Below, piece by piece: positions 1 to 25,020 of a stretch of DNA of 37,206 nt; the first letter of the stretch is position 1, and every line of letters starts with the position of its first letter. Source of the stretch: a virus. Lineage: Duplodnaviria > Heunggongvirae > Uroviricota > Caudoviricetes. The DNA lies in IMG/VR virus record IMGVR_UViG_2737471853_000011, positions 1 through 37,206 of that record; one strand, written 5' to 3'. The notes under the pieces were generated by a model. It had not been told where the DNA came from and made no database searches. It saw only the letters and a list, made by a program, of their open reading frames with translations. The translations under genes and the position numbers were made by a program.

Positions 1-333
1 TTAGACGTAAATATCAATGGTGCCAGCGGTATTTGTATCGTCTTTTTTCTCTTCTTTTTTATCAGGCTGAACTGTCGCGTCTTCATTCTTTTTCTCTGCC
101 TGCTGCCTTAACAACTGCTCCAGTTGAGCCCTGAGGCTTTCAATTTGCTTCTGTACCAATGCAGCCATTTCTTTTTTCTGCTGTGTCGTCATCCCCTCTT
201 CCGATGAGATTTTCCCAAGCTTTTCAGTCAGCACCTGAATTTGTCTTGTGATTTTGGCTATTTCTGATGTTCCTTCCGGGGCGGAGTTGTTTGAAATAAC
301 GGTTGAGGTATTTCCCTGAATTGTGACAGACAT
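1..333 (-). CDS. flxA: FlxA-like coiled-coil protein (110 aa)
   Basis: Complete ORF with AAGGAG-type RBS and a near-consensus sigma28 promoter upstream; length and composition match the prophage-borne FliA-regulated FlxA as I recall it. Confidence 0.55.
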   Translation of the reverse strand: MSVTIQGNTSTVISNNSAPEGTSEIAKITRQIQVLTEKLGKISSEEGMTTQQKKEMAALVQKQIESLRAQLEQLLRQQAEKKNEDATVQPDKKEEKKDDTNTAGTIDIYV

Positions 334-356
334 AGATTTCTCCTTTTAAAAAAGCA

Positions 357-383
357 CTATCGGCATGCACAAAAAAATCTTTA
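357..383 (-). promoter_or_regulatory. sigma28 (FliA) class-3 promoter, TAAAGATT-N11-GCCGATAG
   Basis: Read on minus strand: -35 TAAAGATT (383..376), 11-nt spacer, -10 GCCGATAG (364..357), about 24 nt upstream of the ATG at 333; consensus is TAAAGTTT-N11-GCCGATAA. Confidence 0.6.
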
Positions 384-464
384 ATCGTATTTCTTGTGTC
401 ATTAATTGTTTGATGTTCAGATTGTTTTCCTCGCGGGCTGGCGCGCCTCAGAAAGTAAAGCTTG

Positions 465-492
465 TTGACAGGGGTAAACGTTCGGCAATAAT
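465..492 (+). promoter_or_regulatory. sigma70-like promoter, TTGACA-N16-AATAAT, reading rightward into the 334..1061 leader
   Basis: Perfect -35 hexamer at 465..470 and -10-like AATAAT at 487..492. Confidence 0.4.
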
Positions 493-1016
493 TTTCTGCC
501 GCATGCGGGTGTTGCATAAAACGTGCTACGTTCCTTTATCGACAGGTCAGGTCACCGCTCACCCGCCGACGAGAAAGCAACACTGACATGCTAAAGCAAA
601 AAATAGATGAATAAGTTGAGTTGTGCATATGTAGCCTGACCGTCACAAAGTATATGGTGTCTGTACCAGTAAGATGATGGCCGGACTCTTTAAAAACGAG
701 CTGACCTGCACAATACAGGATGGACTTAGCAATGGCTGCTCCTGGCACATAGCAGACCAGAGACACTGGCGTAAAGCCATGGAGGATCGGTGGGAGGAGG
801 TAAAAATCCTCTCATGCAAAAAATACGCAAAATCGATAACAGTTGGAAATCATTCAATACTCGCACTATCGGAAGTTCACCAGCCAGTCGTAGCACGTTC
901 TTGCATATGACGTGGCTACGGGTTTCGAGACCGACCCGATCATCAAACGAAACATAAAATTAGCTCACATTATGAGGAAAGGTATCTTTTTGCGCTATGT
1001 AAATTCAAAGGGTTAG

Positions 1017-1886
<870 letters not shown>

Positions 1887-1943
1887 GTCTTTAAGTGATA
1901 AGCATAAACCGCAGCACGATCTTGCATACGACGTGCTACGGTT

Positions 1944-2498
1944 TCATTTATCTCCGACCGGAAACTTCTTATACAGTGTCGATATACCAACATCATAGAT
2001 GATCGCCACCTTCTGGCGAGGAACGCCTGATGCAATTAATCGCCCGGCCTGCGCCCATTGTTCTGGTGTAAGTTTGGGACGACGTCCACCAATTCGTCCC
2101 TGTGCGCGAGCAGCTTCCAGTCCAGCTTTTGTTCGTTCAACAATCAGTTCTCGTTCCATTTCAGCCAGGGCACCCATCACATGAAAGAAAAAACGCCCCA
2201 TCGGTGTGCTGGTATCAATAGCATCCGTCAGGCTGCGAAAATTAACGCCACGTTCGCGCAACTCCTCAACCAGAATGACCAGATGCCGCATACTACGCCC
2301 TAGCCGATCCAGCTTCCAGACAACCAGAGTGTCACCTGCCGATAATGTCCTGAGCAGTTTTTTCAGTCCCGGCCTTTCGGACTTTGTACCGCTTATCTTG
2401 TCTTCAAAAATCAGCTCGCATCCTGCACAGTTCAGCGCATTACGTTGTAGATCTGTGTTCTGGTCATTTGTTGACACACGTACATAGCCAATAAGCAT
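1944..2498 (-). CDS. Serine DNA invertase (Gin/Pin/Hin/Cin family)
   Basis: Begins MLIGYVRVSTNDQ with catalytic Ser and a C-terminal HTH; lies beside an inverted-repeat-bounded tail-fibre segment; start chosen at ATG 2498 rather than the ORF-track start 2534. Confidence 0.9.
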   Translation of the reverse strand: MLIGYVRVSTNDQNTDLQRNALNCAGCELIFEDKISGTKSERPGLKKLLRTLSAGDTLVVWKLDRLGRSMRHLVILVEELRERGVNFRSLTDAIDTSTPMGRFFFHVMGALAEMERELIVERTKAGLEAARAQGRIGGRRPKLTPEQWAQAGRLIASGVPRQKVAIIYDVGISTLYKKFPVGDK

Positions 2499-2553
2499 GG
2501 TAGATCTCCCTGACAAAAGCAGGAATGATGCCATTTGCTCGTTATTTCTGCAT

Positions 2554-2579
2554 TTTCATAAACGTTGGTTTGGGAGAGG
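2554..2579. repeat. Invertase crossover site (gix/hix-like 26-bp dyad), invertase-proximal
   Basis: TTTTCATAAACGTTGGTTTGGGAGAG; 20/26 identical to the reverse complement of 4375..4400, sharing a perfect 13-bp core TTGGTTTGGGAGA. Confidence 0.75.
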
Positions 2580-2914
2580 GAGCAAAATTAGGCGCAGCGG
2601 TGTGTGTGACCGGCTCTACAGGCTATATGACTATCCCGGCAATGGTCGCCGGGAAAGAACGGGTGATCATATTGCAGTGGTTTGGTGCTGCTACAACTGA
2701 TTATGTGACACCAGTAACTGCGAATTTCCCTATTGCATTCCCAAATGAGTGCATGATTCCGTTATTTAGTGATGTATCAACTGGGGCAGTTGATTTGAGT
2801 TCTACAGCCGCATATAGCTTAGCGGTGGGCCGATCATACTATACGACGGTAACAAGAACTCAGATTACATGTGCTGGCTACGGTGGCTTTAGAGTTTTCG
2901 CGATTGGATGGTGA
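2566..2914 (+). CDS. Alternative tail-fibre C-terminal segment (promoterless; joined to the constant N-terminus after inversion)
   Basis: ORF in frame through the crossover site (..[12 protein letters not shown]..) with no independent start; followed by its own assembly-chaperone gene. Confidence 0.65.
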
Positions 2915-3339
2915 TTAATATGTTTTATTCTGCAAAAGAAAATGCGTTCTACGCTGATGAGCTAAAAAGTATTTATGAAAATGCAGGTAGCTGGCCTGAC
3001 GATGCCGTTGAAGTAGACTATTCCGTATTCGTTGAGTTTGCCGGAGAAACACCTAACGGAAAATTACGCGCTCCTAATTCTGATGGTTTACCTGAATGGA
3101 TAGATATTCCCGAACCAACTGAAGAGGAAATTATTGCGTTGGCAGAAGCCGAAAAATCGCGACTGCGTGCTTCAGCTGACTCTGAAATAGAATGGCGGCA
3201 GGACGCCGTTGATGCGGGGATCGCGACGGAAGAAGAAACTGTTTCATTAGCCGAATGGAAAAAATACCGGGTGCTGCTGATGCGAGTTGATACAGCAGAC
3301 CCGGACTGGCCTACTCCTCCGGCGACTCAGGCCAGTTGA
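2908..3339 (+). CDS. Tail fibre assembly protein (alternate copy)
   Basis: 143-aa ORF directly after the alternate fibre segment; acidic C-terminus typical of fibre chaperones. Confidence 0.75.
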
Positions 3340-3916
3340 TATCTGGTGCGCTGGATATGTCCACAGATTCCAGCGCATCGAGATAATCCAGCCATAGGTT
3401 ATATTGCTCTTTTTCTGTCTCTGTCAATCGTCCTAATGCGGCCTTGCCGGGCCATTGCTTTTTGTTCATATAGTCATTGGCCTGGTCAGTTCTCGACAGC
3501 TTTTCTCCTTCGGCAGTAGCGACATTGGCTGCGTGCTGAGCTTCTACATCTGTTACCCACTGTTCCCCATTCCATTTATCATATAATGATGTAGGGGCAA
3601 TGGGTGTTGTATGAGTGGGATAATCGCCAAGTGTCGTTACTTGAACTTGTTGCATCGTCTCTGTGCTATAAACGGTTTGGCCTCTTTTGTCGATAATGTA
3701 TATCCATGATGTAAGGTCTGCTGTTCGACAAATAGCAAATCCGTCTTTGCTTTCGCCAGGTGCGTCAGTGCATGAATTCGCAGGAATGCCGACACCAACG
3801 GGTAAGTATTCAACCGTTGAAGAAAGATATTCGCGCGTCTCACAATCATAATTGTAAACAGTAATATCACCTGATTTCGTGGAAATACCATTATTATTCA
3901 GTATCGCTTTAGTCAT
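3311..3916 (-). CDS. Tail fibre assembly protein (expressed orientation)
   Basis: 201-aa ORF directly downstream of the fibre gene with start overlapping the fibre stop. Confidence 0.8.
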
Positions 3917-4677
3917 TATGCAGCCCTCACAATATAATTAAATGCGATATTACGTGGACGGCTAACAATGGAGTTGCCAGAGTCAACATTCAATTTATTC
4001 ATCGCTGTACTACCCGTAATTGTCTGAGACTGTAATGCAGTTGTGGATGGTGATTTATCCCCTTGGAATGGGCTAAGGTCATAAGCAGTTGCTGTTGCTA
4101 ATACTACCGTTGCCTGCGTGTCATTCTTCCAGTCAACCCCGATATAAGTACCTCCCTGCGCAGAAAGCAGCGAACGTCCAGTATCAACCCCGCGTCCGTC
4201 ATCCCATCCACGAATAAACTCCCCCCGCAGGTCTGGAAGTTTCATGTCTGGATAGGCTAGTGCCAGTTTAGGGTACTGGGAGGCAGTGAACGCGGCTCCG
4301 TTGCATTTAAGCCATCCCTTTGGTGGCGTTGCTGACGGCCACGGAATGGGGACGCCAACCGGCAATGCAGAACCTTCTCCCAAACCAAGGTTTTCGAGAG
4401 CCGTTTTCACCGTGCCATCCGATTTGATATCGCCAAACGGATTCTTGCGGCTTAACAGCAGCGCACGAAGCGCTGTAAGTAGCTGGTCATGCCGCCCCTT
4501 CTCCAGGCTGGCACCGGATGCCTCCACAACACTGCAAAGTTCCTCCTGCAACATGTCAAAGTAGTCATCATCCAGATCGGTGGCAGGTGTGCCGGTCTGG
4601 GGGTTACCACGGGTAAAACCGTTCTTACCCGCGCCGAACTTATCCTTCTGCGCGGTTTTCGTATCTATACGATGCAT
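3916..4677 (-). CDS. Tail fibre protein (constant N-terminus 4401..4677, variable C-terminus inside the invertible segment)
   Basis: 253-aa ORF; crossover site lies in frame at residues ~93-101 (ALENLGLGE). Confidence 0.85.
4375..4400. repeat. Invertase crossover site (gix/hix-like), distal, inside the tail fibre gene
   Basis: TTCTCCCAAACCAAGGTTTTCGAGAG; internal dyad symmetry around a central AA; inverted relative to 2554..2579. Confidence 0.75.
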
Positions 4678-4680
4678 GGA

Positions 4681-5265
4681 TTACTCCGGATATTTAAAAA
4701 TTACGTAGGTATGCGACGGGCAGAGTTTGTTAAGCACACACTCGACAACGGTGTCGCCCCAGATACGCAGTGCGGAATCACAGGGATCGCCACATGTCAT
4801 CCAGGTGGTGTTGGTGTCGGCTGGCATGTTGACCTGCCAGTAATACCGCCATTCCGGCGCATTCACCGCGTCAGTACAGGCCGATGAGCAGGTGAACGTG
4901 CTTTTGTCGTATCGCGTGATGGTGGCGTCTGGTCTGCCCAGGGCAGCAAGCTGTGCAAGGTAAAAATCCTCATTGATGCCGCCCGCCAGGTTAACCTTCG
5001 CATCCAGTCGTTGCTGACGCTGGCGAAGGGTCTGTGTCCCTGCGGGAATACATTCATCCGGCAGGCCGCACAGACGCTCCCAGCGATTTATCAGTTCGGT
5101 GGTGGTGCGCGGATCCAGCTCCCGCATCAGGGCATCCGCACGCTGATGAACGCGGGTTAATGACTGTGCCGCACCGGCAATCGCCGGATCGCTGGCTGAC
5201 CACGCCGGACCGGGCGGCAGCAGTGCCGACAACAGACGGATGTAATCATCGTTTGTCACGTCCAT
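4681..5265 (-). CDS. Tail/baseplate protein (Mu gp48-like, DUF2313-like)
   Basis: 194-aa ORF between baseplate J-like gene and tail fibre. Confidence 0.6.
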
Positions 5266-6314
5266 GAAATCGTCCCCAGAACCGCCAGTTCATTTTTTGC
5301 AATGGAGATATTGTCCGCCGGAGCAAGCAACTGATGGCTGTATTCCCCGTTCGCACCGGAAATCGCTTCACTGATACGCGATACCTTCAGCTCTCCCTGC
5401 GGATAACCATCACGCAGCAGGAATGAACGCAACTCTGCGGTAATGGCAGCCCGTATTTCCGGTGTGTCCGGCGTCACGCGGATATGAAAATCCACCGTAT
5501 GCGCCACCGGCCTGAACACATACAAATCAGAGCCTGCCACCGGGGCCAGTGGCTCAATGTGTTGTCTTGCCGCCGTTTCCGTTGATTCTTCCGGAATGGG
5601 ATTAATCAGGTCACTGCTGGCAATCATCACACCGACAGTTCCCGTTCCCATCCAGTGACGGTATGTCCATGCGCGGGTAATGCCGGGCACTTCTTTAGCC
5701 CAGACGACATAGTCCCCGTCAGCCCCGCCCTGCGGCGTCCAGTAATACCGCTCAATGACGCGGGCGCGCCACGTTTCCAGATCTTCAGTATCGAATCCGC
5801 CAGTCAGGGTATCTGCCACACCGGAAGACGGCAGACCATTCACCGGCGTGACCAGGATTAATGCCGTACCGTCGTCAGCGTTACCGACCGCGCCTGCAGT
5901 TGAGCAGGCGATCGGCACGCGCAGGACACCACCGGAGCTGGTTGCATCAGAAGTTGCCGTGTACTGAACCAGGTCATCGCGCTGAATAACACTCCCGGCG
6001 GTCACCTTCAGGCCATCGCTGACACCTTCCCAGCGCATATACCCGCTGGCAGACGTGGCCCCCTTGCGCGGACACCGTTTCATCGCAGCATGTCGCGCCA
6101 GCCAGGACTCATCGCAAAGGTCAGGCAGCATGTTCATTGCCAGATAATCGATGTAACCGTAAACCGTATGCAGCGCCGCCGCATACACCTTTGCCCGCAC
6201 GTCTTCATCCATGCGCCGGAGCGTGTCGCTGACGTCCAGCCTGGCGAATAAATCGTTACGGAGCATACTGATATTTTCTGCCAGCGTCGGGCGTTGAAAT
6301 TCACTGTCCGCCAT
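5256..6314 (-). CDS. Baseplate J-like protein (Mu gp47-like)
   Basis: 352-aa ORF in conserved position within the baseplate cluster. Confidence 0.75.
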
Positions 6315-6729
6315 GCGTTATCGCACTCCACAGATCATCAAAAGAAATCATTACCGGTCCGTCACGACGCCAGAGGGTGATACTGTTACCCAGCTCATTA
6401 ATCCCGGTGCGGCGGATATCCAGATCAATACGGGACACTACGCCGTCATCAATCATCCATTGCAGGCATTCGCGGATATATCCCCTTACCGTCTGCACCA
6501 GCTGATTGGTCAGTTTGCTGCGCTGAAGCAGCCACAGTCGGGAGCCGTAACGGTCATTCTGTACCGCAGGCCAGGTATCCCCCCACCATCCCATCGGGAC
6601 GTCGGCATTGTCATCAGGTTCAGCCCGCCGCCAGGTGAACAGGGAAATCACCACGGCACGGGTCAGCGGATCCAGCGGTGCGCTGGCGCAGGTGCGTTTA
6701 CCGTTCACCGTCAGCCACAGTTCCATCAT
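6301..6729 (-). CDS. Baseplate protein (Mu gp46-like)
   Basis: 142-aa ORF, overlapping starts and stops with neighbours. Confidence 0.65.
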   Translation of the reverse strand: MMELWLTVNGKRTCASAPLDPLTRAVVISLFTWRRAEPDDNADVPMGWWGDTWPAVQNDRYGSRLWLLQRSKLTNQLVQTVRGYIRECLQWMIDDGVVSRIDLDIRRTGINELGNSITLWRRDGPVMISFDDLWSAITHGGQ

Positions 6730-7274
6730 GCCTCCATCGCTTTATCAGGTTTGTCGGTGTTACTGCCCTGACCGTTCTCTCTGTGACGATGCCCGTTATA
6801 GGCAAGCCGCATCGCTGACATGGTGGTGCCGGTGGAGTCGCACAGGTCTTTCACCTGTCCGGTCACTTCCAGGTCCATTTCAAAACGAGCCTTAGGCGCA
6901 TTGCGAAACGTGATCGTTTTACCTGCACCGTCCACCACGATCCCCTCCCGGGTCAGCGTCACGGACTGCCCCTGATCGTCATAGACAGCCACCTCCCCCG
7001 TATGCAGCCCTTTCAGGCGGTAGCGCCGGTCCGACACCGTAACAACCACCGCATGAGAACGGTCGCCATCCGGAAACAACACCACCGCTTCCGCACCGCT
7101 GTTTGCCCTTGCGGTAAAACCGTAGGGTTCAAGATGTTCAACCCCGGCTTTGGGTTCACCGGCAATCAGGGACACATCCACGGTCTGACATTTCGTGGCG
7201 GCACTGATGCTTTTCACCACTGCCCGCCCAATCAGGCCGAGAAGTTGTCGCTGCATGGCTTCAATCGTCCTCAT
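6726..7274 (-). CDS. Baseplate assembly protein V / spike (Mu gp45-like)
   Basis: 182-aa ORF in conserved order. Confidence 0.7.
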   Translation of the reverse strand: MRTIEAMQRQLLGLIGRAVVKSISAATKCQTVDVSLIAGEPKAGVEHLEPYGFTARANSGAEAVVLFPDGDRSHAVVVTVSDRRYRLKGLHTGEVAVYDDQGQSVTLTREGIVVDGAGKTITFRNAPKARFEMDLEVTGQVKDLCDSTGTTMSAMRLAYNGHRHRENGQGSNTDKPDKAMEA

Positions 7275-8353
7275 CAGAACGGGTCCTCCTGTACTCTGGC
7301 TTTTTTCTTTTTCCGCGCGCCGGGGTCTTCAGGTTCAGGCAGATAAGCATCAGGCGGGCCGACACGGATTTCCGTCAGGGTACCGTTCTGGTCCTGAGTA
7401 AACGTGACTTCCGAAACAAGCAGTTCGGTATTGTCAAAACCACAGACCGGATCAAAGACAATCACCCGCTGGTTGGGTTGCCACAGCGTACCGTTACCCT
7501 GTCGCCAGCCCTGCACCACATAGGTGGTTTCATCCGTCCGCGCCGCCCGTTGCCGGGCTTCAAAGTCAGCACGCGCAATACAGCCTGCCCCCGTAGCCTG
7601 CCCTGTCTGCCTGATATACATCGGACGGTAACGGGCAATAAATGCGTCCTCTGTGCGGGCCCGCAGCGCGGTGGTGGTGGCCTCACCGAAATCATCGTCG
7701 TTTCCGGCACGCTGCCCCGCCACCTGGTAAACAGAAAACCGCTCCCGGATACTCTTCTCCGTATCGCAGGAAAGGATGTTTTCCCCAAGTACCAGCGCGG
7801 TATGTGCCCGCGTTGAGCCAATACCGCCAATCACCAGCCTGCCGTGCGGATCGTCGTAAGCCAGTGCCTGCTGCTGACCGAGTATTTTGTTGATTACCTC
7901 AATCACCGTTTCACCGTGATCAGGCTGGACATCAGGAATAACACCCGACGGCGCACCGCTGTTCACCACCTCAATGCCGAAAGGCGCAGCAAGCGCCTGC
8001 GCAATCTGTACCAGCGATCGTCCGTTAAACTGTGTCGGTTCGGCTGCACAGTCAATCAGGTCAGCGGTCAGACTGCGTCCGGCAATACCGGTGCTGACCG
8101 AACGGGCATCGTAACGAACGGGAGTCGCCTCCACCCAGCCGGTGATCACCAGCTCATCACCAATCAGCACTTCCACTTTTGAACCGTTTTTAATGCGCGG
8201 CTGAAGCGTGGTGATACCCTCATCTCCCGGCCACTGGCGGGTGATCTCCACACTGAAATCCCGCGCCAGCCGTTCAATACCGGCACCGATGCGCACCGAA
8301 GTCCAGCCATTCCACTCCCGGCCATTTACCCGTAGCGTGACGTTATCGTTCAT
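7274..8353 (-). CDS. Baseplate hub / tail protein (Mu gp44-like, P2 gpD-like)
   Basis: 359-aa ORF following the DNA circularisation-like gene. Confidence 0.65.
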   Translation of the reverse strand: MNDNVTLRVNGREWNGWTSVRIGAGIERLARDFSVEITRQWPGDEGITTLQPRIKNGSKVEVLIGDELVITGWVEATPVRYDARSVSTGIAGRSLTADLIDCAAEPTQFNGRSLVQIAQALAAPFGIEVVNSGAPSGVIPDVQPDHGETVIEVINKILGQQQALAYDDPHGRLVIGGIGSTRAHTALVLGENILSCDTEKSIRERFSVYQVAGQRAGNDDDFGEATTTALRARTEDAFIARYRPMYIRQTGQATGAGCIARADFEARQRAARTDETTYVVQGWRQGNGTLWQPNQRVIVFDPVCGFDNTELLVSEVTFTQDQNGTLTEIRVGPPDAYLPEPEDPGARKKKKARVQEDPF

Positions 8354-9678
8354 TGCACTGGCACCTTCAGAGGGATCACCGGCACAAAGCCGGGATGCGT
8401 AATGGCATTACGCCGGATAATGTCCGCGTCACGCGTCGCGTTATCAAACCATGTCGCCGCCAGCACCAGCGCGGGTAAAACCTCATCCGGTGTGCGCTGA
8501 ATGATCCGTGCAGACTGTTCAAGGCGCGTGTTGATATCCGCATTCAGATCTGCTTTCACCCGGCGCAGCGCCAGAAACAGCGCATCACTGGTTGTACGGG
8601 ACAACTCCTTATCAATTGCCGTATTCAGTGTGTCGCGAATGTCAGTCAGTTCTTCCCACGTCGGCAGATCAACCATGTTTTTCATCGCCGGTGCATTGTT
8701 CAGTGCCGGATGCGTGACGGAAGGCCAGCCGGTGCTCTGTGCAGCTGTTGTTGCCTGCCCCACTGCGGCATTCTGCATCACCGCGGAAGTTGTTGGCGCA
8801 GGCAATCGGGTGACGGCATACGCCGCTTCGCTGATTGCGGTCGTACGAAGGGTGCTGGCAACCACGTTACGCTGCTGCGTCGCCGTAGCGGTGGTTTTAC
8901 TGTCCGTTTTCCAGACGCCGCGCGGTTGCAGATCACTGCCGAGGCTGACACCGGAAAGCGTTTTGATCATGGTGACCAGGTCGCTGGCGTTACCATAAAG
9001 GCGTTTCCCGGTACGCCACATTTTCTGCACCTGCTCAACGAAATTTTTGCCTGACGATGGCGGCGGCAGAAGTACCGAGATATCCCCCTGCAACAGCCTG
9101 GCGGCATCCGATACGGCAGAATCCACCACTTTCATCGCATCAGAAACATACCCCAGCATTATGCTGGCATTACCAATAACGTCGTTCTGCACGAAATCCG
9201 CCACGCCATCGATACTGAAACCGCTGAAGCTGTCACTGATGCAGTCATCCAGTGCAGAACAGGATGACATCAGCGTCTGCGCCGTCGCCGCACCTGAAGT
9301 GGGGTAAGAGAGTTCTCCCGCTTCGACAAACTTCAGGTCAAAGCGGACAATACGCCCTTCACTCTTCGATGTGCTGACCCGAACCTCTCCGTCAACACAG
9401 ACTTTCAGCTCACCGTAAGTCGGATGGACAAGCGTGCCGGGACCGGGTTTATTCAGCGCGTCAATCAGGCGATCGCGCTGGTCAAAGCAGTCATCTCCCA
9501 CCACATAAGCCGTGATGGACGGGCGGAAAGTGATTTTCCCCAGGTCTTCGGTATAGGGTTTGTCGCGGTTCGGGTATTCGTGCGTTTCCACACGACGACC
9601 GGTTCCCGCACTTTCTTCTTCAACCTTAAACGGCACACCGCGAAATGACGCGTCCTGAAGTCTGTCTTTCCACGTCAT
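8350..9678 (-). CDS. DNA circularisation protein N-like (Mu gp43-like); start set at ATG 9678 with GGAG RBS
   Basis: Large ORF after the tape measure gene; the ORF-track start 9720 would place a hairpin plus T-run inside the CDS and has no RBS. Confidence 0.65.
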   Translation of the reverse strand: MTWKDRLQDASFRGVPFKVEEESAGTGRRVETHEYPNRDKPYTEDLGKITFRPSITAYVVGDDCFDQRDRLIDALNKPGPGTLVHPTYGELKVCVDGEVRVSTSKSEGRIVRFDLKFVEAGELSYPTSGAATAQTLMSSCSALDDCISDSFSGFSIDGVADFVQNDVIGNASIMLGYVSDAMKVVDSAVSDAARLLQGDISVLLPPPSSGKNFVEQVQKMWRTGKRLYGNASDLVTMIKTLSGVSLGSDLQPRGVWKTDSKTTATATQQRNVVASTLRTTAISEAAYAVTRLPAPTTSAVMQNAAVGQATTAAQSTGWPSVTHPALNNAPAMKNMVDLPTWEELTDIRDTLNTAIDKELSRTTSDALFLALRRVKADLNADINTRLEQSARIIQRTPDEVLPALVLAATWFDNATRDADIIRRNAITHPGFVPVIPLKVPVQ

Positions 9679-9693
9679 ATAAACTCCGTACAT

Positions 9694-9715
9694 AAAAAAT
9701 CCCACCGGAGTGGGA
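9694..9715 (-). terminator. Possible weak intrinsic terminator between tape measure and next gene
   Basis: Minus-strand transcript UCCCAC-UCCG-GUGGGA followed by UUUUUU. Confidence 0.3.
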
Positions 9716-9738
9716 CTCATTAACAGATTAATTTTTCA

Positions 9739-11574
9739 TTACCTGCCAAAGCGCGTATAGCCAACATCATGGCTGACATCAAAACCGCTGGATCGCGTTT
9801 CCATAACCCGCATACCCGGAGGCGAATTCACAAAAGAGACCTTGATCTCACCATCAACTTTTGGCGCAGTAGCTTTATTAATCATGAAGGGATTCGGGCC
9901 TGTGGCATCGGAGGCGTTGTTTGACTGAGCCGGATCTACCGCCGGATAAGGTGTGTATCCCCGTGCCGGTATTCCCGTCCCATAAGCATCATAAGCACCC
10001 GCGCCCCACTGCGCAGAGTTAATGGCATCGACCGTGTCTCCGGAACTGTCGGTAAACCACTCAATAATTGGCTTCAGCTTGTCCCACATATCCTGAAACC
10101 ACTTAACAACCGGCCCCCAGTTATTGATCACCATCCCCAGCGGCGACCAGGCAAAAACTTTCTTAAGGAGTTCCCAGCCAGCCTCAAAATAAGGACCAAT
10201 GGTTTCCCAGAGCTTCTTGAAATAAGGTCCGACAACATCCCAGTTAGTGATAATTAATCCCGCAGCCAGGGCTATCGCCGTCGCAATCATGCCAATCGGC
10301 GTCATCGACATGATCCTGCTGACAATACTGATGGCACTGCCCACGCCCATCAATCCCAGCTTCAGAATCGCAAGACCGGCAGCAAGCCCGACGACGCCGC
10401 GAATAACCCGGGGATTTTCATCCGCAAACTTCGTGAATTTTTCCCCCAACTCCCCCAGCCATTGCGTGATATTTTTAGCGTCACCAGAAAATGCGCCGCC
10501 AATAGCTGCAAGACCGTTAGTTGCGGTCCCCGTCATTGCCTCCCACAGGTTGGACAGCGTACCAAGCTGTGCCTGAACACGTTTATTCAGGCTGGCCTGT
10601 TTATTCATCTTCTGCTGGATCTGATCGTAACCATCCTTTCCTTTATCGATCAGAGCATTGACCACCTGAAGGGTTTCAGCATCATCACCAAATATTGCCT
10701 TAAGTACGCCTGTTCGCTTAACGTCGGTCAGTTTTCGCAACTTTGCCAGTTGCCTGAACATGTTATCAAGACCGCCAAAACTTCCTTTGCCGTCAGTAAA
10801 ATCGAGCTGTACCCCGAGTTTCTGGCGGGCCATGACTTTATTGACGTCCCTGATTTTCTTAACACTTAATCCGGACTGGATAACTTTTCGCAGGGCATTA
10901 CCTGCCGACTCCCCGTTCATCCCCATCTGATCCATCATGACGCTGATGGGGGCAAGGCTCTGTGCAGCCTGAAGACCGTCCTTGTTCACCATCTTCAGAA
11001 CAGAACTGGTTTTAGTGAAGAAGGACAACATGTTGGTATCGTCAACGCCCAGATAAAACGCCTTCTGGATAGTGTCGAACAGCCCCATCATGTCTTCTGA
11101 CGCCGTTCCGGTAGCATCCTGCATCTTTGCAGCAAACTCAGCAGCCGCTTCCGGTGTTTTTTTCAGTTGTACCGCAAGATAAGCTGTCGCTTTACCCACA
11201 CCACCAAGAATGTTTTCTGCCGGGATCCCCTGACGCACCAGCATCTGCATCATGTTCTGGAAATCAGCCGTTGTACCGGGTAGCTGGTTACCCAGGCCAA
11301 TAGCCAGTTTATTGATGTCCTGAAAACTCTTTCCAACCTCGCCGTTCGCATCCATCATGGCGACTTTCAGCCCGGTGGCGGCGTTTTCCTGATCGGCATA
11401 AGATTTCAGGGAAAGCGTCAGACCCGCTGCCAGTCCGCCACCAAGCGCCAGCCCACCCTGTGACGCTTCTTCCGCCTGGCGTTTAAATCCCCGGATTTTC
11501 TTTTGCATTTTCGACAGCGCGGGAGAAAGCCTGTCGACACCGGTGATCAACGCCTTAAGCTCAAATTCAGCCAT
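9739..11574 (-). CDS. Tail tape measure protein
   Basis: 611-aa ORF, Ala/Gly-rich with hydrophobic C-terminal region, directly downstream of frameshifted chaperone. Confidence 0.85.
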   Translation of the reverse strand: MAEFELKALITGVDRLSPALSKMQKKIRGFKRQAEEASQGGLALGGGLAAGLTLSLKSYADQENAATGLKVAMMDANGEVGKSFQDINKLAIGLGNQLPGTTADFQNMMQMLVRQGIPAENILGGVGKATAYLAVQLKKTPEAAAEFAAKMQDATGTASEDMMGLFDTIQKAFYLGVDDTNMLSFFTKTSSVLKMVNKDGLQAAQSLAPISVMMDQMGMNGESAGNALRKVIQSGLSVKKIRDVNKVMARQKLGVQLDFTDGKGSFGGLDNMFRQLAKLRKLTDVKRTGVLKAIFGDDAETLQVVNALIDKGKDGYDQIQQKMNKQASLNKRVQAQLGTLSNLWEAMTGTATNGLAAIGGAFSGDAKNITQWLGELGEKFTKFADENPRVIRGVVGLAAGLAILKLGLMGVGSAISIVSRIMSMTPIGMIATAIALAAGLIITNWDVVGPYFKKLWETIGPYFEAGWELLKKVFAWSPLGMVINNWGPVVKWFQDMWDKLKPIIEWFTDSSGDTVDAINSAQWGAGAYDAYGTGIPARGYTPYPAVDPAQSNNASDATGPNPFMINKATAPKVDGEIKVSFVNSPPGMRVMETRSSGFDVSHDVGYTRFGR

Positions 11575-11715
11575 GTGTGCGTTTCTCCTGCTCTATCCTG
11601 TTTGCCTGACTGACCAGCAAGGGAATTTCACTGATCGGCATATTCAGCAATTCGAAGGGATTAATGCGCCAGTAGCTGGCGCAGTCAAAGAAGCGATCAG
11701 TGAGGTATTCAGCCG

Positions 11716-11985
11716 TCAGGCCTGGAGGAAAAAACCAGCCACAAGCCACGCCGCTGCATTCAGGTCTGCCGGAGACATCTGGTCGACAGAGCTTTGCGGC
11801 ACTTTCGCCAGCCGCACAATGTATTTCGACACCACATGCGCCAGAAGTCTGACGGACTCATCCTGATTCATCTGGTAGGGATACCCCAGCTCGCGGACAT
11901 CCTTCCCGGTGGGTTCATCAAACTCCAGTACGGAGAGTGTCTCACCATGAGCGATAATCGGTTTCTTTAACTCAAGCTCTTTCAT
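11716..11985 (-). CDS. Tail assembly chaperone (89 aa) with -1 frameshift extension to 11567
   Basis: Slippery heptamer T_TTT_TTC near the 3' end; the -1 frame (ORF 11567..11749) continues and overlaps the tape measure start. Confidence 0.7.
   Translation of the reverse strand: MKELELKKPIIAHGETLSVLEFDEPTGKDVRELGYPYQMNQDESVRLLAHVVSKYIVRLAKVPQSSVDQMSPADLNAAAWLVAGFFLQA
11727..11734 (-). other. Programmed -1 ribosomal frameshift site (T TTT TTC read on minus strand)
   Basis: Heptamer is in the zero frame of 11716..11985 (codons GGT TTT TTC); -1 frame gives ..WFFPPGLTAEY.. as in ORF 11567..11749. Confidence 0.6.
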
Positions 11986-12341
11986 TACTGGTAATCCCCT
12001 TCTTCACCGTGGAACTCAAGATCAACCGTGCCTTCTTCGGCATTATGGTTCGCTTCTCCGTGCAGCCAGGCGGACGACAATACATAGACCTGACCGTTCG
12101 CCAGCTCGGCAGTGATTGTCATCTCATCAGACGAGGTGATTTTGCTCACCGGAAAATTCTTCGGCACCTTGAAGGTCCCTTTGACATAAGGCGCACGGTG
12201 AGTTTCCTTGCGGTCCACTGAACCGTCCAGGCCGATGATGTCATCATTGACCGTCCTGTTCATGGGCACCTCAATGCCGCCGGTCAGCGATAGCTGCTGA
12301 CCGTCAATTTTGAAATAACAGGTTCCCCCGATACGGGCCAT
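11985..12341 (-). CDS. Tail tube protein
   Basis: 118-aa ORF immediately downstream of the sheath gene. Confidence 0.8.
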   Translation of the reverse strand: MARIGGTCYFKIDGQQLSLTGGIEVPMNRTVNDDIIGLDGSVDRKETHRAPYVKGTFKVPKNFPVSKITSSDEMTITAELANGQVYVLSSAWLHGEANHNAEEGTVDLEFHGEEGDYQ

Positions 12342-13837
12342 TATGCAGACTCCTCTGAATACTGAAGACGGAACTGGTTAACCACGGCAAAAACACGCAA
12401 CTGGTTAACATAGTCAGGCGGGAACAGCGTGTTCAGGCGGTTCGGATCGCTGGCATCACGCTCCACAACCAGGTACTGCTTAAACAGTTCGTAGTTTTCC
12501 ACGATCCCCGCACGCTCAAGCTGACGATAGGTTGCCAGCAGTTCCCCTTTGATTACCGCCGGGGTGACAATCGCCTGAGCGGGACCAAAGCGGGTACCGT
12601 CGCTGGCAAGCTTGTGACGCCCGTACTTACTGGTAATGACGGATTTCAGTTTGCGCAGTACATACGCACTGGTATGCAGCGTCTCGCTGTCGAGGTAGCT
12701 GTTATCCGCAACCCCGTAAGCATTTTTCCTGTACGTGGTGACATCACGCTGAATGCGCAGCACCCCGCTTTCGACATACGCCGTTGCCACGCCATGAGAC
12801 AGCAGGGTCTGCTGCTCGGTCATCGTGAACCGTTTCCCCTTCGGCGCAGGCAGCATACCCACCAGCTCACCGGTCTGCGTGGGACGTGCCGGATCGTTGC
12901 GGATAAACACCGCTGCGCGGGCGGTACGGCTTGCCGCCAGCTCGTCGGCAGGGGTCTGGGTCTCTTTTTCGTACCCCGCCAGGGTGATGTGCTGCTGGTT
13001 AAACTGGTCACCTGCGTTCACCAGTTCTGACAGTGTGCCGGTCTTTGCCGTATACACATGACCATACAGCTGACGCGCATAGCTCCAGCGACCGCTGGTA
13101 TCGTTCATTTCGGTCACCAGCGTGTTAACGGAGGCCGTGTCGTTGAACGGCAGACCGATATAATCAAACGGCTCATCCGCCATTGCAGCCACCGCGCCGG
13201 TGAGAACCGGAGCGCCCGTTCCGGCGGTCCCCGTCGCCACGGCAATCTGTACGCCCGCTGGCAGCACTTCGCCCCCACCGAAGCCGTAGTAATTGAGGCT
13301 GACAGGAATTTCATTCCCGCAAAGCCCCTTATGACGCGCGGTCAGCGTGACAACACCAGCCGAAGATGAAGCTGTAAACGGCAGAGTCGGAACGGCATTG
13401 ATGGCATCTTTGATACTGCTGGCAATCGTCGTGACGTTATCGCCGTTGGTCACCGAAGCCTGCACGCGGGTACGTCCCACATAGACATTCACCGTGCCGC
13501 TTTCGGTTGCTTCCCCGGTCACCGTCAGCGTAACCGTTGCCGCCGCGCCTGTGGCTTCCGGAACGGCAATCACATACAGCTCACCAAACGGGTCGGTCTG
13601 GCGATAAGCCTCGACCATACGCGCCAGCTGACTTCCCGCACCACAAATCTGGCGTGCATAGTCTGCCGACGGCATCAGCACCAGACTGTTGGCAACAATC
13701 TCTGCACCGTTATTGGCATGACCAATCAGCAGCGATGCTCCGCTGTCCTGTGCAGTATTCGCAGCCTGGTTATCCATTTCCGCATAAAACAGCGGAACCA
13801 GCGTATTCGACGGAATGGTGTTAAAGCTTATCGTCAT
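12341..13837 (-). CDS. Tail sheath protein
   Basis: 498-aa ORF in conserved position. Confidence 0.9.
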   Translation of the reverse strand: MTISFNTIPSNTLVPLFYAEMDNQAANTAQDSGASLLIGHANNGAEIVANSLVLMPSADYARQICGAGSQLARMVEAYRQTDPFGELYVIAVPEATGAAATVTLTVTGEATESGTVNVYVGRTRVQASVTNGDNVTTIASSIKDAINAVPTLPFTASSSAGVVTLTARHKGLCGNEIPVSLNYYGFGGGEVLPAGVQIAVATGTAGTGAPVLTGAVAAMADEPFDYIGLPFNDTASVNTLVTEMNDTSGRWSYARQLYGHVYTAKTGTLSELVNAGDQFNQQHITLAGYEKETQTPADELAASRTARAAVFIRNDPARPTQTGELVGMLPAPKGKRFTMTEQQTLLSHGVATAYVESGVLRIQRDVTTYRKNAYGVADNSYLDSETLHTSAYVLRKLKSVITSKYGRHKLASDGTRFGPAQAIVTPAVIKGELLATYRQLERAGIVENYELFKQYLVVERDASDPNRLNTLFPPDYVNQLRVFAVVNQFRLQYSEESA

Positions 13838-13991
13838 CGGTGTTCACCTTTTTATTCACGCGCCGGATATCACCCGCTGCTTCACGGCGCAGCCAGTAGT
13901 TGTTCTCATCAACATTTCGCCCTTCGGCGGGCAAAAGGTCGCCGCGGGCAGGGTCAGGCACTGACCGCCCTTTAACAGGTTTCACAAACAT
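13821..13991 (-). CDS. Small DUF2635-like protein (56 aa) preceding the sheath gene
   Basis: Not in the ORF track (under 60 aa): ATG at 13991, translates MFVKPVKGRSVPDPARGDLLPAEG.., stop overlaps the sheath start. Confidence 0.5.
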   Translation of the reverse strand: MFVKPVKGRSVPDPARGDLLPAEGRNVDENNYWLRREAAGDIRRVNKKVNTDDDKL

Positions 13992-13999
13992 GATGATCC

Positions 14000-14560
14000 T
14001 CAGGAAGGAAGGGGTATTTCGGTGTGATGTTCGATATCGCCGTCAGGCCCGTTACCGGGATCGAGATAATCAACATCAATCGCCAGCGTTCGCAGTTCAT
14101 CCAGACTGTTCAGGTCATCCTGCTGGCGGGTATCGTCTTCGGTCAGCTCGCTGATGACCGAAAAATCGAACTGATAAATCAGCTCATGACGATTCAGATC
14201 CAGCAGCGTGCCGCCGTCATAGGTAATCGGGTTACCGCACGCTTCCGGGTTCCAGCCCAGCAGGGCCTTAAAGAGCATCTGCCGGACATCGTCCACCACA
14301 TCATACGAAGCAAACTGACCGCGCTCATCACGCCCGTTACTCAGTATGACAACCACGGAGAAGCCCTCTTTCAGCTCCTGCCAGTAGTCGGTCTGGCTTT
14401 TGTTTTCTCCCGGAGAGTCATCACCCGGTACCACATACGCCGCCGGGAGTCTCAGCTTTCCGACCTCCGGCAGATTTTTGAACTGTGCCGCGCCTGCCAC
14501 CCGGTTTTCAAAATACGGGCAGCGGGCACGCAGCGCAGCAATAACAGGCGTCAGTTTCAT
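14000..14560 (-). CDS. Tail-associated / virion morphogenesis protein (Mu gp37-like?)
   Basis: 186-aa ORF between head-tail joining genes and sheath; family uncertain. Confidence 0.45.
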   Translation of the reverse strand: MKLTPVIAALRARCPYFENRVAGAAQFKNLPEVGKLRLPAAYVVPGDDSPGENKSQTDYWQELKEGFSVVVILSNGRDERGQFASYDVVDDVRQMLFKALLGWNPEACGNPITYDGGTLLDLNRHELIYQFDFSVISELTEDDTRQQDDLNSLDELRTLAIDVDYLDPGNGPDGDIEHHTEIPLPS

Positions 14561-15063
14561 CTGCGTCGTCGCTCCGGCTTCAGTGATTTACGTAATTCCC
14601 GCGCCAGAAAATAGCGTGTCCAGCTGCGGTTCTTTTCAAGAGTTTCCACCATAAAGTTATTACGTGGAGCCAGCCGCCAGCCGCTGCCACCGGATGCACC
14701 ACGATGATGACTACGACGACGTTTTGCTCCTCCCCGGACACCAAAAAACAGAAACGCCGGATAGAAGTCACCAGAGATCATCCGGTTCCCCTTCCCGTTG
14801 CGCTGGTTAGGGGCAATGCGTGTCATAAAACCGGCTCGCTTTTTACTGGCTCTCGGCACCATGTAACCAATCGAACGAGCCAGGCGTCCGGTCTGATAAC
14901 CGGGGTTTTCACCCGGTGCCGACCGCGCACGGCGCATCACCAGCCGACGGGCATCACGCATATGACGCTGCCCAATCGTGACAAACGCCCGCCGGACACG
15001 GGCGCGGTTAAAGCGCATCTCCGCGGGCTGCTGAACATCAACGTGAAAAAAGGGAGTCGCCAT
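14557..15063 (-). CDS. Tail completion / virion morphogenesis protein (HK97 gp10-like?)
   Basis: 168-aa basic protein in conserved position; family uncertain. Confidence 0.5.
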   Translation of the reverse strand: MATPFFHVDVQQPAEMRFNRARVRRAFVTIGQRHMRDARRLVMRRARSAPGENPGYQTGRLARSIGYMVPRASKKRAGFMTRIAPNQRNGKGNRMISGDFYPAFLFFGVRGGAKRRRSHHRGASGGSGWRLAPRNNFMVETLEKNRSWTRYFLARELRKSLKPERRRR

Positions 15064-15448
15064 TGCTGCCTCCGTGACTCTGCGTAAATTCGCCCAGTTC
15101 CGTACACTCCAGCAGCAGAAAGCGCCGCGCCCCGTTCAGATCGCGCTGACGTTTCACCCGGTACACACTGTCATCACAGACCACCTCATAATCAGCAGTG
15201 ATCCCCCGGCGGTAGCGAATGGTGATGTAATGGGTGATGGCATCTCCGGTCTGCGCGGTTTCCTGCCAGGTGGTGGCACTGGTCTGGATAACCTTCGCCC
15301 ATGCCCGGAACGCAACCGGGTATTGAGGCTCCACGCCAAAGTTATCCGCGGGCATATCCACCCGCTGGCGGATCAGGACGCGTTTATTCAGTTCACCGGG
15401 GTCCGGCAGAATGTAGGTTGCGCTGGTCTGCGCCTGACGAATTTTCAT
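15038..15448 (-). CDS. Head-tail joining (head closure) protein
   Basis: 136-aa ORF with the ITIRYR-type motif. Confidence 0.65.
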   Translation of the reverse strand: MKIRQAQTSATYILPDPGELNKRVLIRQRVDMPADNFGVEPQYPVAFRAWAKVIQTSATTWQETAQTGDAITHYITIRYRRGITADYEVVCDDSVYRVKRQRDLNGARRFLLLECTELGEFTQSHGGSNGDSLFSR

Positions 15449-15768
15449 TGCGGAAAGTACCTGTACGGGCCGACAAGCCAGCCAAAACTCTGCGGCATGT
15501 CGAGTTTCTCCACTTCCGTAACCGACGAGCGGTTTTCGTAAAAATGGCTGATAAGCATCAGCATCCCCAGACGAATATCATCCGGCAGGTGCAGCCCGTC
15601 CGGATCGCTGTCCGGAATGGTTTCATCCGGTGCATAGAGCTTCCGGTTCAGATACGTTTCCGTCCGCTTTTGTGCCGCACAGGCCAGCAGTTGCAGATGG
15701 CGGTCATCAGCATCGAAATCCTCATCCAGCCGGAGTTGGGCTTTAATCTCTTCCATTGTCAGAAGCAT
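15445..15768 (-). CDS. Head-tail connector protein (gp6-like)
   Basis: 107-aa ORF just downstream of capsid gene. Confidence 0.65.
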   Translation of the reverse strand: MLLTMEEIKAQLRLDEDFDADDRHLQLLACAAQKRTETYLNRKLYAPDETIPDSDPDGLHLPDDIRLGMLMLISHFYENRSSVTEVEKLDMPQSFGWLVGPYRYFPQ

Positions 15769-24174: not shown

Positions 24175-24996
24175 ATGAACTTTTCTAATACCAAAAAAAA
24201 CAATTTAACAAAGAAATGTCAAGTTAGGGCTTTTAATGTGAACCTTGACGGGAAGAGTAATTTATTTCAGCAAATATCAACAAATAATAAATTTGTACAG
24301 GGTTCCATAATCCAGTTATCAACTAACAGGCATTTAAAATTAAAAGAATTTAGCACTAAAGGTAATATCCATTACTTACATTTTTCTTTATACAATCCGA
24401 AAGAAGAAGTGTCGATTACCCCAAATAAACCTAACACTAAAGATTTGTTAGATGTTGAAAATTTTGACAATTTACATGCCTTCTTTATGGTTAAGGATAA
24501 TCAAATTGCTTCACTCCTTCAAATATCCACTAACTGGAGTGAAGTCAAAATAGCAAAAATCTTCAAATGCTATGGCATAGATATTATACCGTCAGCTATC
24601 TTAAAGAAAAATGTAATCCAAAAAGTCAAAGATGATGGTTTGCGCGCTGTACATGTGAATTTCAACGTGCATGAATCAGATTTTGTTAACAAGCCTAGTT
24701 TCTTATCTGTGTTTGTAAAAAAAGAGCCAAAATTAAAACAAACAGGAATAAGTGGCCATTTTACTATCGATGCCAGAGGAAACCCTGCCGTTGCTGCATC
24801 AATTGAAAACAATCCGACGCCTTGGATATCTGATTTAAACAGTGACTTTTACTTTGAAACTAAAAAAGGAGAGAAAATCACTAGCGATGACATGAAACTT
24901 ACAAAGATTTACTACACGTTACCATACGGCTCGCAAACAATTTCCAGCAAATATGCTCATGAAATTTTAGAGCATTTTGTCACAAATGAGTTATAA
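24175..24996 (+). CDS. Hypothetical soluble protein (273 aa), first gene of AT-rich accessory cassette
   Basis: Low-GC ORF on the opposite strand to all flanking phage genes; no recognised catalytic motif. Confidence 0.75.
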   Translation: MNFSNTKKNNLTKKCQVRAFNVNLDGKSNLFQQISTNNKFVQGSIIQLSTNRHLKLKEFSTKGNIHYLHFSLYNPKEEVSITPNKPNTKDLLDVENFDNLHAFFMVKDNQIASLLQISTNWSEVKIAKIFKCYGIDIIPSAILKKNVIQKVKDDGLRAVHVNFNVHESDFVNKPSFLSVFVKKEPKLKQTGISGHFTIDARGNPAVAASIENNPTPWISDLNSDFYFETKKGEKITSDDMKLTKIYYTLPYGSQTISSKYAHEILEHFVTNEL

Positions 24997-25020
24997 TATA
25001 CTTAAAAACGGGGAGGCCAT

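Follow-up and report, generated by a model that had tools for sequence, protein, structure and literature searches.

The analysed stretch of DNA, hereafter the window (37,206 nucleotides, positions 1 to 37,206 of IMG/VR record IMGVR_UViG_2737471853_000011), very probably contains an active DNA inversion switch of the Din family (Gin/Hin/Cin/Pin), with a rough probability of 0.88. The switch is read as the orthologue of the e14 P segment with its invertase gene pinE, and it belongs to the tail module of what looks like a complete SfV-like prophage. The system is a known one: genuine and active, judging by the two orientations in public assemblies, but of an ordinary kind. Textbooks have covered the e14 P segment and the Gin/Hin/Cin/Pin family since the 1980s, and names such as pinE and tail fibre assembly protein are already attached to these genes in RefSeq. 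The features of the switch, in window coordinates, are as follows.

1906..1944, no strand assigned: strong hairpin, from RNA folding, where the convergent pin and GIY-YIG genes meet.
1944..2498, minus strand: pin, a 184-aa serine DNA invertase and PinE orthologue (Pfam Resolvase, E 9e-52; HTH_7, E 5e-13).
2414..2477, no strand assigned: candidate recombinational enhancer within the 5' end of pin, with two G-N13-C 15-mers (centres 2470 and 2421).
2525..2565, plus strand: leader of the pin-proximal ORF, outside the invertible DNA, with an in-frame ATG ATG at 2525 and AGGA directly before it.
2553..2578, no strand assigned: pin-proximal (left) crossover site, TTTTCATAAACG TT GGTTTGGGAGAG, 26 bp in a 12-2-12 register.
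2566..2914, plus strand: Sv', the alternative fibre C-terminus (Gp53-like_C, E 7e-10), unjoined to the constant part in the window state.
2920..3339, plus strand: tfa', assembly chaperone for Sv' (Caudo_TAP, E 8e-34).
3311..3916, minus strand: tfa, assembly chaperone for Sv (Caudo_TAP, E 2e-32).
3916..4387, minus strand: Sv, the fibre C-terminus expressed in the window state (Collar, E 4e-15, plus a divergent distal part).
4375..4400, no strand assigned: fibre-gene (right) crossover site, TTCTCCCAAACC AA GGTTTTCGAGAG, 26 bp.
4388..4677, minus strand: Sc, the constant N-terminus of the short tail fibre, with about 97 aa (fibre ORF 3916..4677).

The pin gene abuts the segment, as a first-pass annotation of this DNA had described. 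A distance of 54 nt separates its start codon from the outer edge of the left crossover site, and the gene is transcribed away from the invertible segment. The translated invertase, with its Resolvase and HTH_7 domains, is identical to K-12 PinE at 175/184 residues (95%) and to Mu-like Gin at 141/184 (77%). Its best PDB matches are the Gin structures 3UJ3 and 4M6F (E about 1e-93). The catalytic residues R7, S9, D64, R65 and R68, as expected of a small serine recombinase, are all kept. The same annotation had named an inactivating mutation in the invertase, together with a single orientation in deep long-read data, as a finding that would speak against a switch; the pin ORF is intact. The hairpin beyond the end of pin has a folding energy of -26.9 kcal/mol on the pin strand (z -4.8) and of -20.9 kcal/mol on the other strand (z -4.0). 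A U-rich stretch follows the stem on either strand, and the hairpin is likely a bidirectional terminator.

The two crossover sites overlap an inverted repeat of 21 nt (2560-2580 / 4373-4393) that is 90% complementary. They share a perfect 13-bp core, TTGGTTTGGGAGA, whose left copy is at 2565..2577, so the inverted sites and perfect core of the first-pass annotation are confirmed. The right site had been placed correctly at 4375..4400. The left site had been placed one base too far to the right and is actually at 2553..2578. The internal dyad symmetry claimed for both sites is 9/12 in the right site and 7/12 in the left site in the corrected register; in the earlier register, 2554..2579, the left site has a symmetry of only 3/12. 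The central dinucleotides, TT in the left site and AA in the right (TT on the other strand), agree, and the two 26-bp sites are inverted with respect to each other. A site consensus, TTNTCNNAAACCNNGGTTTNNGANAA, was built from Mu-like gix sites and the Hin/Gin family pattern. When up to three mismatches are allowed, this consensus has exactly two matches in the 37.2 kb, which are the two sites (expected number 0.01). A third crossover site, or a shufflon-like multiple inversion, is ruled out at this threshold.

The constant part of the fibre gene, Sc, lies downstream of the Mu gp48/YmfQ and baseplate J genes, and its immediate neighbour (4681..5265) is Phage_Mu_Gp48 in Pfam. The start of tfa overlaps the stop codon of the fibre gene (TAATG). 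By their coordinates, tfa and tfa' converge with an overlap of 29 bp. Each variable segment thus has a Caudo_TAP chaperone gene of its own, as had been proposed. The translations given earlier for the sites are also correct, both for the minus-strand reading within the fibre gene and for the plus-strand reading ..INVGLGEG.. on the pin side. At both sites the crossover falls in the codons of G-L-G-E-G, read in one and the same frame, so that either tip is joined in frame to the 97-aa part. In a simulated flip at the central dinucleotide, the 97-aa N-terminus is fused in frame to Sv', which yields a fibre of 212 aa compared with 253 aa in the window state. One N-terminus therefore joins in frame to either of two C-terminal parts, each with its own chaperone gene, as in the Mu G segment. 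The simulated 212-aa fusion is equal in sequence to a translated CDS annotated as WP_000554684.1 in Combat11I9. RefSeq treats the 253-aa fibre inconsistently, as a pseudogene in one record and as an intact protein in another.

Direct evidence that the segment inverts comes from near-identical prophages. Over window positions 1900..4800, KW21 has an identity of 100%, and so does Combat11I9 except for one gap. KW21 is 99.4% identical to the window over the first 24 kb and mosaic beyond. In the Combat11I9 record, NZ_CP021726.1, the prophage tail region is 99.6% identical over window positions 1..15570. The first 32,384 nt of this record recur as its last 32.4 kb; between the two copies there are 4 mismatches and some 59 gap openings in total. 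The sole structural difference between the two copies is an inversion at window positions 2560-2580 / 4376-4393. The copies include 13-14 kb of identical chromosomal flank and are located at the two ends of a circular record. Because of the shared flank, the end positions, and differences that are almost only indels, the repeat is read as an untrimmed overlap of a single locus. The junctions of the simulated flip match NZ_CP021726.1 at 400/400 positions. The segment is thus found inverted in other genomes with a near-identical copy, and the window itself shows one orientation. The first-pass annotation had proposed a population of mixed orientation. This holds for the near-identical prophage, in which the two copies are in opposite orientation, and it would extend to the strain of the window; the predicted junction proteins of both states also occur exactly in public assemblies. 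In cultures of K-12, both orientations of the e14 P segment are found together (PMC4272514; PMC12529663).

Both configurations, for which a check across the segment had been suggested, are present in public assemblies. In exact look-ups, the junction proteins of the window state are found on 14 contigs (253 aa) and 13 contigs (129 aa), and those of the flipped state on 65 contigs (212 aa) and 54 contigs (170 aa), counts that clonal sampling may inflate. A homology search had returned almost only the 129-aa form; the strong orientation bias that this implied is overturned by the exact look-up, in which the flipped-state proteins are on more contigs. Counted over complete-genome records, related Collar cassettes are attached to the constant part in 509 and to the pin side in 680. 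Stand-alone draft contigs of 1.8 kb that correspond to window positions 2579..4374 occur in at least 8 assemblies. These were considered as a sign of mixed cultures and set aside, as several prophages that share flanks are an equally possible source.

Two other explanations of these data were weighed against an active switch. It is extremely unlikely that the two orientations in public data represent different prophage copies or assembly errors. Many E. coli genomes do have two to four pin-linked loci, and the 1.8-kb draft contigs could be derived from several flank-sharing prophages, but the repeat in NZ_CP021726.1 is a single locus by its long identical flank, both breakpoints map precisely to the 26-bp sites, and every position of the junctions agrees with the simulated crossover. 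The switch could also be a relic in this strain that no longer inverts, with pin silent or the enhancer defective, and the orientations seen elsewhere could be past events or the work of invertases acting in trans. The window contains one orientation, a consensus scan of 2400..2620 gives no pin promoter above shuffled background, and PinQ and PinR of other K-12 prophages can flip the e14 segment in trans (PMC12529663). A relic is nevertheless improbable, given that the pin ORF and both sites are intact and that positions 1900..4800 match not only KW21 but also, save for the one gap, Combat11I9, whose assembly caught both orientations in one culture. An active switch is therefore the preferred reading.

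The organisation attributed to the window, that of the Mu G and e14 P segments, is borne out gene for gene in order, strands, sites and invertase identity. In the e14 P segment, the order and strands are as in the window: ymfQ, fibre constant part, Sv, tfa, tfa', Sv', pin. K-12 e14 and the window have the same constant-side site, and their pin-side sites differ at a single nucleotide. The distance between the arms is 1797 nt in e14 and 1792 nt in the window. Both elements contain one Collar tip and one gp53-like tip, and the fibre N-terminus of the window matches K-12 StfP save for one residue. The tips are different alleles from those of e14. The Collar fibre has 187 residues identical to the 262-aa StfP2 (simulated) and diverges after the Collar domain. 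The orientation in the window is "inverted" relative to the MG1655 reference. The defence gene that follows pin is mcrA in e14 and PD-T4-3 in the window. The e14 element is a 15-kb remnant in icd, whereas the prophage of the window is apparently complete, about 34 kb long, and at tRNA-Thr(CGT). Identity with e14 itself is ruled out by this end, which is not icd; the window prophage is a relative with the same tail module.

The Mu-like G segment has the same layout (S constant part, Sv, U, U', S'v, gin) on corresponding strands. The 26-bp sites are of the same family, and the tip is swapped together with its chaperone in both. In the Mu-like record, there are 2718 nt between the arms, the repeats are 43 nt long and 86% complementary, and the fibre is about 490 aa. 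The window differs in its short fibre (253 or 212 aa), its constant part of about 97 aa, and a perfect repeat of only 13 bp. The Salmonella Hin/hix system, compared here by its published description, has a recombinase of the same subfamily and the same 26-bp site design. Hin flips a promoter, whereas the switch in the window exchanges coding 3' ends. The SfV, SfI and SfIV-type myoviruses of Shigella and E. coli have a head and tail gene set similar to that of the window, and over positions 4374..4800 their DNA for the baseplate and the constant part of the fibre has an identity of about 96% with the window. In the records of these phages, only the fibre constant part and ymfQ match; there is no match to pin and the invertible segment.

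The element as a whole is apparently an intact SfV-like myovirus prophage. The ORFs for structural proteins, lysis, regulation and the integrase all have their full length throughout the window. At the prophage end, the integrase is next to tRNA-Thr(CGT) and a 417-aa aldehyde-dehydrogenase-family gene, which is probably proA. A search of the first 3 kb for an att core, as a copy of at least 12 nt from the tRNA-Thr region, finds none, and the far boundary of the prophage is therefore undefined.

The proposed course of inversion follows that of homologous systems. Pin dimers would bind both 26-bp sites, as expected from homology. A tetramer would form, probably with Fis on the enhancer in the 5' end of pin. 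The tetramer would cut the central TT/AA dinucleotides and rotate, and the DNA from 2566 to 4387 would invert; the position of the exchange is located to within the 13-bp core. The 97-aa baseplate-proximal part is then joined either to the Collar tip (253 aa) or to the gp53-like tip (212 aa), as the simulation and the exact database matches show, and the chaperone gene, as demonstrated here, moves with its own tip into the expressed position. Lysogens would hold both orientations, induced virions would carry one of the two tips, and host range would presumably be affected.

The published Hin enhancer is 65 bp long, with a Fis site at each end, and lies about 100 bp from a hix site (PMC3798978). 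The layout of positions 2414..2477 fits this description, which makes the region a candidate enhancer. Its two 15-mers are 49 bp apart; measured to the centre of the left site, the distances are 95 and 144 bp. Their positions are conserved in the window pin, K-12 pinE and Mu-like gin, but both fall within conserved coding sequence. In scoring against a simple Fis consensus, which is uninformative and gives weak matches, the 15-mer at 2421 reaches 8/12 and that at 2470 is below the listing threshold of 8/12.

On the pin side of the segment, the ORF at 2525..2914 encodes 129 aa in the window state and is annotated in RefSeq as WP_111975848.1. Its start codon lies outside the segment and it gains a fibre tip by inversion, which is the architecture of StfE2; the leader at 2525..2565 is the equivalent of the first part of K-12 stfE/StfE2. 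In K-12, StfE2 itself is reportedly produced and active (Kirigo et al. 2025, PMC12529663). The first-pass annotation had called the alternative segment promoterless. This is not established, as there is an in-frame ATG at 2525 and a 129-aa protein in RefSeq, and K-12 StfE2 is reported to be made. The consensus scan of 2400..2620 finds no promoter above shuffled background that reads into this ORF.

These observations bear on a third explanation, in which the switch is mainly a phage-defence toggle of the host: the free pin-proximal protein would mask outer-membrane receptors and block adsorption, as reported for StfE2. According to Kirigo et al. 2025 (PMC12529663), StfE2 arises when the 1797-bp e14 P segment inverts, and it blocks adsorption of T2. 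The state of the window is the one called "inverted" in K-12, its 129-aa ORF shares the leader and architecture of StfE2 and has its own ATG preceded by AGGA, and the next gene beyond pin is PD-T4-3. Nevertheless, 54 of about 125 residues are identical between the gp53-like ORF of the window and K-12 StfE2, and equal receptor specificity cannot be assumed at this level. There is no promoter-like site above background into the ORF and no PADLOC match, and the defence claim is based on a single study of a cryptic prophage. The prophage in the window looks complete, unlike e14, so the classical role in virion host range is available to it. A switch that acts mainly in defence is thus unlikely. 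A reading with two outputs, in which inversion would supply both a virion fibre tip and a free leader-fused protein that masks receptors against superinfecting phages, with PD-T4-3 alongside in a small defence cluster, is similarly doubtful. Under such a dual output, the free protein would have a length of 129 aa in the window state and 170 aa in the flipped state.

A virion fibre switch of the Din family is the reading retained here, and its two orientations may give rise to two host-range variants. The Collar tip is at most 58% identical to sequenced phage fibres, and the gp53-like tip has no match among 50,697 phage records. A comparison of the tips with fibres of known receptor specificity, which had been suggested as a check, is not informative, as neither tip has a close relative of known specificity. 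The host-range variants stay inferential because no receptor can be assigned to either tip.

The switch misleads automatic annotation, as in the conflicting RefSeq calls for the 253-aa fibre. The presence of an e14-switch orthologue in a seemingly complete prophage makes its original host-range role testable, which is impossible in the e14 remnant. The second, divergent tip pair also offers a test of the recently claimed role of the pin-proximal chimeric protein in phage defence.

The switch consists of the following features:
1906..1944, both strands: strong hairpin near the invertase gene (pin)
1944..2498, minus strand: invertase ORF (pin), 184 aa, with Resolvase and HTH_7 domains
2525..2914, plus strand: pin-proximal ORF with a Gp53-like_C domain at its end, convergent with the minus-strand genes
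2553..2578: pin-proximal crossover site, 12-2-12, TTTTCATAAACG TT GGTTTGGGAGAG, dyad symmetry 7/12
2920..3339, plus strand: second Caudo_TAP chaperone gene (tfa'), convergent with the minus-strand genes
3311..3916, minus strand: Caudo_TAP chaperone gene, 201 aa, directly behind the fibre gene
3916..4677, minus strand: tail-fibre ORF, 253 aa, with a Collar domain
4375..4400: crossover site in the fibre gene, 12-2-12, TTCTCCCAAACC AA GGTTTTCGAGAG, dyad symmetry 9/12

Pin is an intact invertase with its catalytic residues present, and among solved structures those of Gin (3UJ3 and 4M6F) match it best. Transcription of pin would end at the hairpin at 1906..1944. The annotations of the fibre gene conflict. 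PGAP labels it a pseudogene 'missing C-terminus' in Escherichia coli KW21 (L001, the fetched KW21 locus, 8257..8778), whereas the same 253-aa ORF in strain Combat11I9 is an ordinary protein, WP_040091762.1.

A single inverted pair found by the repeat finder brackets the cassettes (2560-2580 and 4373-4393; 21 nt, 90% complementary). The two crossover sites have a perfect 13-bp core in common, at 2565..2577 on the left, and both fall within G-L-G-E-G codons, with the core read in the same frame at each. When the window is scanned with the consensus TTNTCNNAAACCNNGGTTTNNGANAA, a family pattern not taken from the window, with up to three mismatches allowed, there are exactly two matches in 37.2 kb (0.01 expected); these are the two sites, and there is no third. 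The first-pass annotation had the right site correct at 4375..4400. Its left site, 2554..2579, is one base off, with a symmetry of 3/12 there versus 7/12 at 2553..2578. A perfect 15-nt inverted repeat (2548..2562 and 2972..2986; CTGCATTTTCATAAA and TTTATGAAAATGCAG) pairs the outer half of the pin-proximal site with a spot within tfa', where 0.16 matches with up to two mismatches are expected in the window. This repeat is also present in KW21 and Combat11I9. The K-12 e14 region contains no exact copy, and its pin-side flank is one base different. The copy inside tfa' is at best a lone half-site.

Inversion at the two family-type sites, which have matching cores, swaps the fibre tip in frame together with its chaperone. 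With the exchange simulated at the central dinucleotide, the constant part trades its Collar tip for the gp53-like tip, the fibre goes from 253 aa to an in-frame 212 aa, and the other chaperone gene is brought in behind the fibre gene. This agrees with the earlier proposal that each variable segment has its own chaperone and that inversion exchanges the fibre C-terminus.

Inversion may also depend on Fis, through a candidate pair of G-N13-C 15-mers centred at 2470 and 2421, which puts them 49 bp apart and at distances of 95 and 144 bp from the centre of the pin-proximal site. The pair fits the published Hin enhancer, a 65-bp element that has Fis sites at both ends and is located roughly 100 bp away from a hix site (PMC3798978). 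Both 15-mers are kept in pin, pinE and gin, within conserved coding sequence. Their match to the Fis consensus is weak (8/12 at 2421; below the 8/12 listing threshold at 2470).

Among 5,426 complete genomes of E. coli, only two have the exact cassette pair arranged as in the window. In one of these, Combat11I9 (NZ_CP021726.1), both simulated flipped junctions also match 400/400. Both states are matched because of a terminal-overlap assembly artefact: in this circular record the final 32.4 kb reappears as the first 32,384 nt, and 13-14 kb of the repeated stretch is chromosomal flank (the pao genes among others). Between the copies at the record ends (L002 1..32384 and L003 12613..45000) there are 4 mismatches and some 59 gap openings, and the sole structural difference is an inversion with ends at window 2560-2580 and 4376-4393. 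Many genes at both ends carry frameshift annotations. Most simply, this is a single locus whose assembly overlap was left untrimmed, from a culture with both orientations. As deposited in RefSeq, this 'complete' chromosome contains an indel-ridden overlap through which half a prophage and the pao region are present twice and dozens of genes are spuriously frameshifted.

Exact protein look-up is independent support for inversion. The window-state proteins occur on 14 (253 aa) and 13 (129 aa) contigs, and the predicted flipped-state proteins on 65 (212 aa) and 54 (170 aa). For related Collar cassettes, the constant-part junction is found in 509 complete-genome records and the pin-side junction in 680. 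At least eight draft assemblies of E. coli have a separate contig for the segment interior, whose limits coincide exactly with the inner edges of both sites; L009-L012 are contigs of this kind, 1789-1796 nt long, and correspond to window 2579..4374 or 2579..4367. Such contigs could reflect mixed orientation in cultures or several prophages with common flanks. K-12 cultures are reported to contain mixed orientations of the orthologous e14 segment (PMC4272514; PMC12529663). Inversion at these sites is shown in other genomes, whose segment matches window 1900..4800 at 100% identity. The expectation that the segment occurs in both orientations holds for the NZ_CP021726.1 copies and the exact junction proteins, that is, for genomes other than the window's strain.

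The invertase is identical to K-12 PinE at 175 of 184 residues and to Gin of the Mu-like phage at 141 of 184. Both e14 and the G region of the Mu-like phage have this gene order, on the same strands. The constant-side site of e14 is identical to that of the window and the pin-side site has a 1-nt difference, with an arm spacing in e14 of 1797 nt compared with 1792 nt in the window. The window orientation corresponds to the K-12 'inverted' state of e14. The 253-aa fibre has 187 residues identical to simulated K-12 StfP2, diverging past the Collar domain, and the 129-aa pin-proximal ORF has 54 identical to K-12 StfE2. The window element is not e14. Its ORFs for head, tail, baseplate, lysis, regulation and integrase form a full set, and it ends at tRNA-Thr(CGT). 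This end adjoins a 417-aa aldehyde-dehydrogenase-family gene, probably proA. SfV-type phages have the baseplate and fibre constant part in common with the window, and the SfV-type records searched contain no match to pin or the invertible segment. The first-pass identification of a Gin/Pin-type tail-fibre switch is confirmed, with the one-base site correction, and its interpretation is supported. This is a known system whose genes already carry RefSeq labels.

The neighbouring cargo and prophage edges contain the following features:
1..333: FlxA-like gene, outside the prophage tail end
about 822..908: short capsid-gene fragment, also beyond the tail end of the prophage (placed by RefSeq annotation of the KW21 locus, which is nearly identical)
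1110..1886, plus strand: GIY-YIG gene just beyond pin, LEM-3-like GIY-YIG protein (Pfam E 2e-14)
24175..24996 and 25021..25503, plus strand: two ORFs oriented against the phage late genes, with the lysis genes on one side and the antiterminator on the other

The 1110..1886 product is a full-length match to the PADLOC model of PD-T4-3, a single-gene anti-phage system (E 2e-140). In e14 this slot is held by the restriction gene mcrA. The gene is an open 258-aa frame in the window and is frameshifted by annotation in KW21. It is flanked by two copies of a ~35-nt hairpin-forming element (core GCACGNTCTTGCATANGACGTG; 889..925 and 1910..1945), direct repeats about 1020 bp apart with a chance expectation of 0. 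Both copies are present in KW21 and Combat11I9, and the element has no match in the K-12 e14 or Mu-like regions, the two other fetched loci. The copies may mark the edges of an inserted gene cassette, and the one near pin looks like a bidirectional terminator. The 24175..25503 interval appears to be a variable cargo slot, since its contents differ among the window, Combat11I9 (a KAP NTPase) and KW21 (a DNA methyltransferase). In the window, the first ORF matches phrog_23561 (unknown function, E 1e-98), and neither ORF is matched in Pfam at the curated cut-off or in PADLOC. The two features within 1..910 look like debris of another prophage. The tRNA-Thr att core is not repeated in the first 3 kb, which leaves the prophage boundary on this side undefined.

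The earlier description of the alternative segment as 'promoterless' may be wrong: an in-frame ATG ATG at 2525, preceded by AGGA, lies outside the invertible DNA, and the product is a RefSeq protein. In e14, the StfE2 chimera is reported to be made after inversion and to block phage T2 adsorption (Kirigo et al. 2025). This precedent and the start codons would fit a pin-proximal chimeric protein, here predicted at 129 aa, that is made and acts as StfE2 does, but no promoter-like site above background precedes the ORF and its tip is only a distant relative of the StfE2 tip. On these two grounds an StfE2-like role is kept as an improbable, minority reading beside the tip exchange. No sequenced phage fibre exceeds 58% identity to the Collar tip, and a search of 50,697 phage records gives no match to the gp53-like tip, so no receptor can be named for either. 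With different tips on the same constant part, the two orientations may differ in host range.
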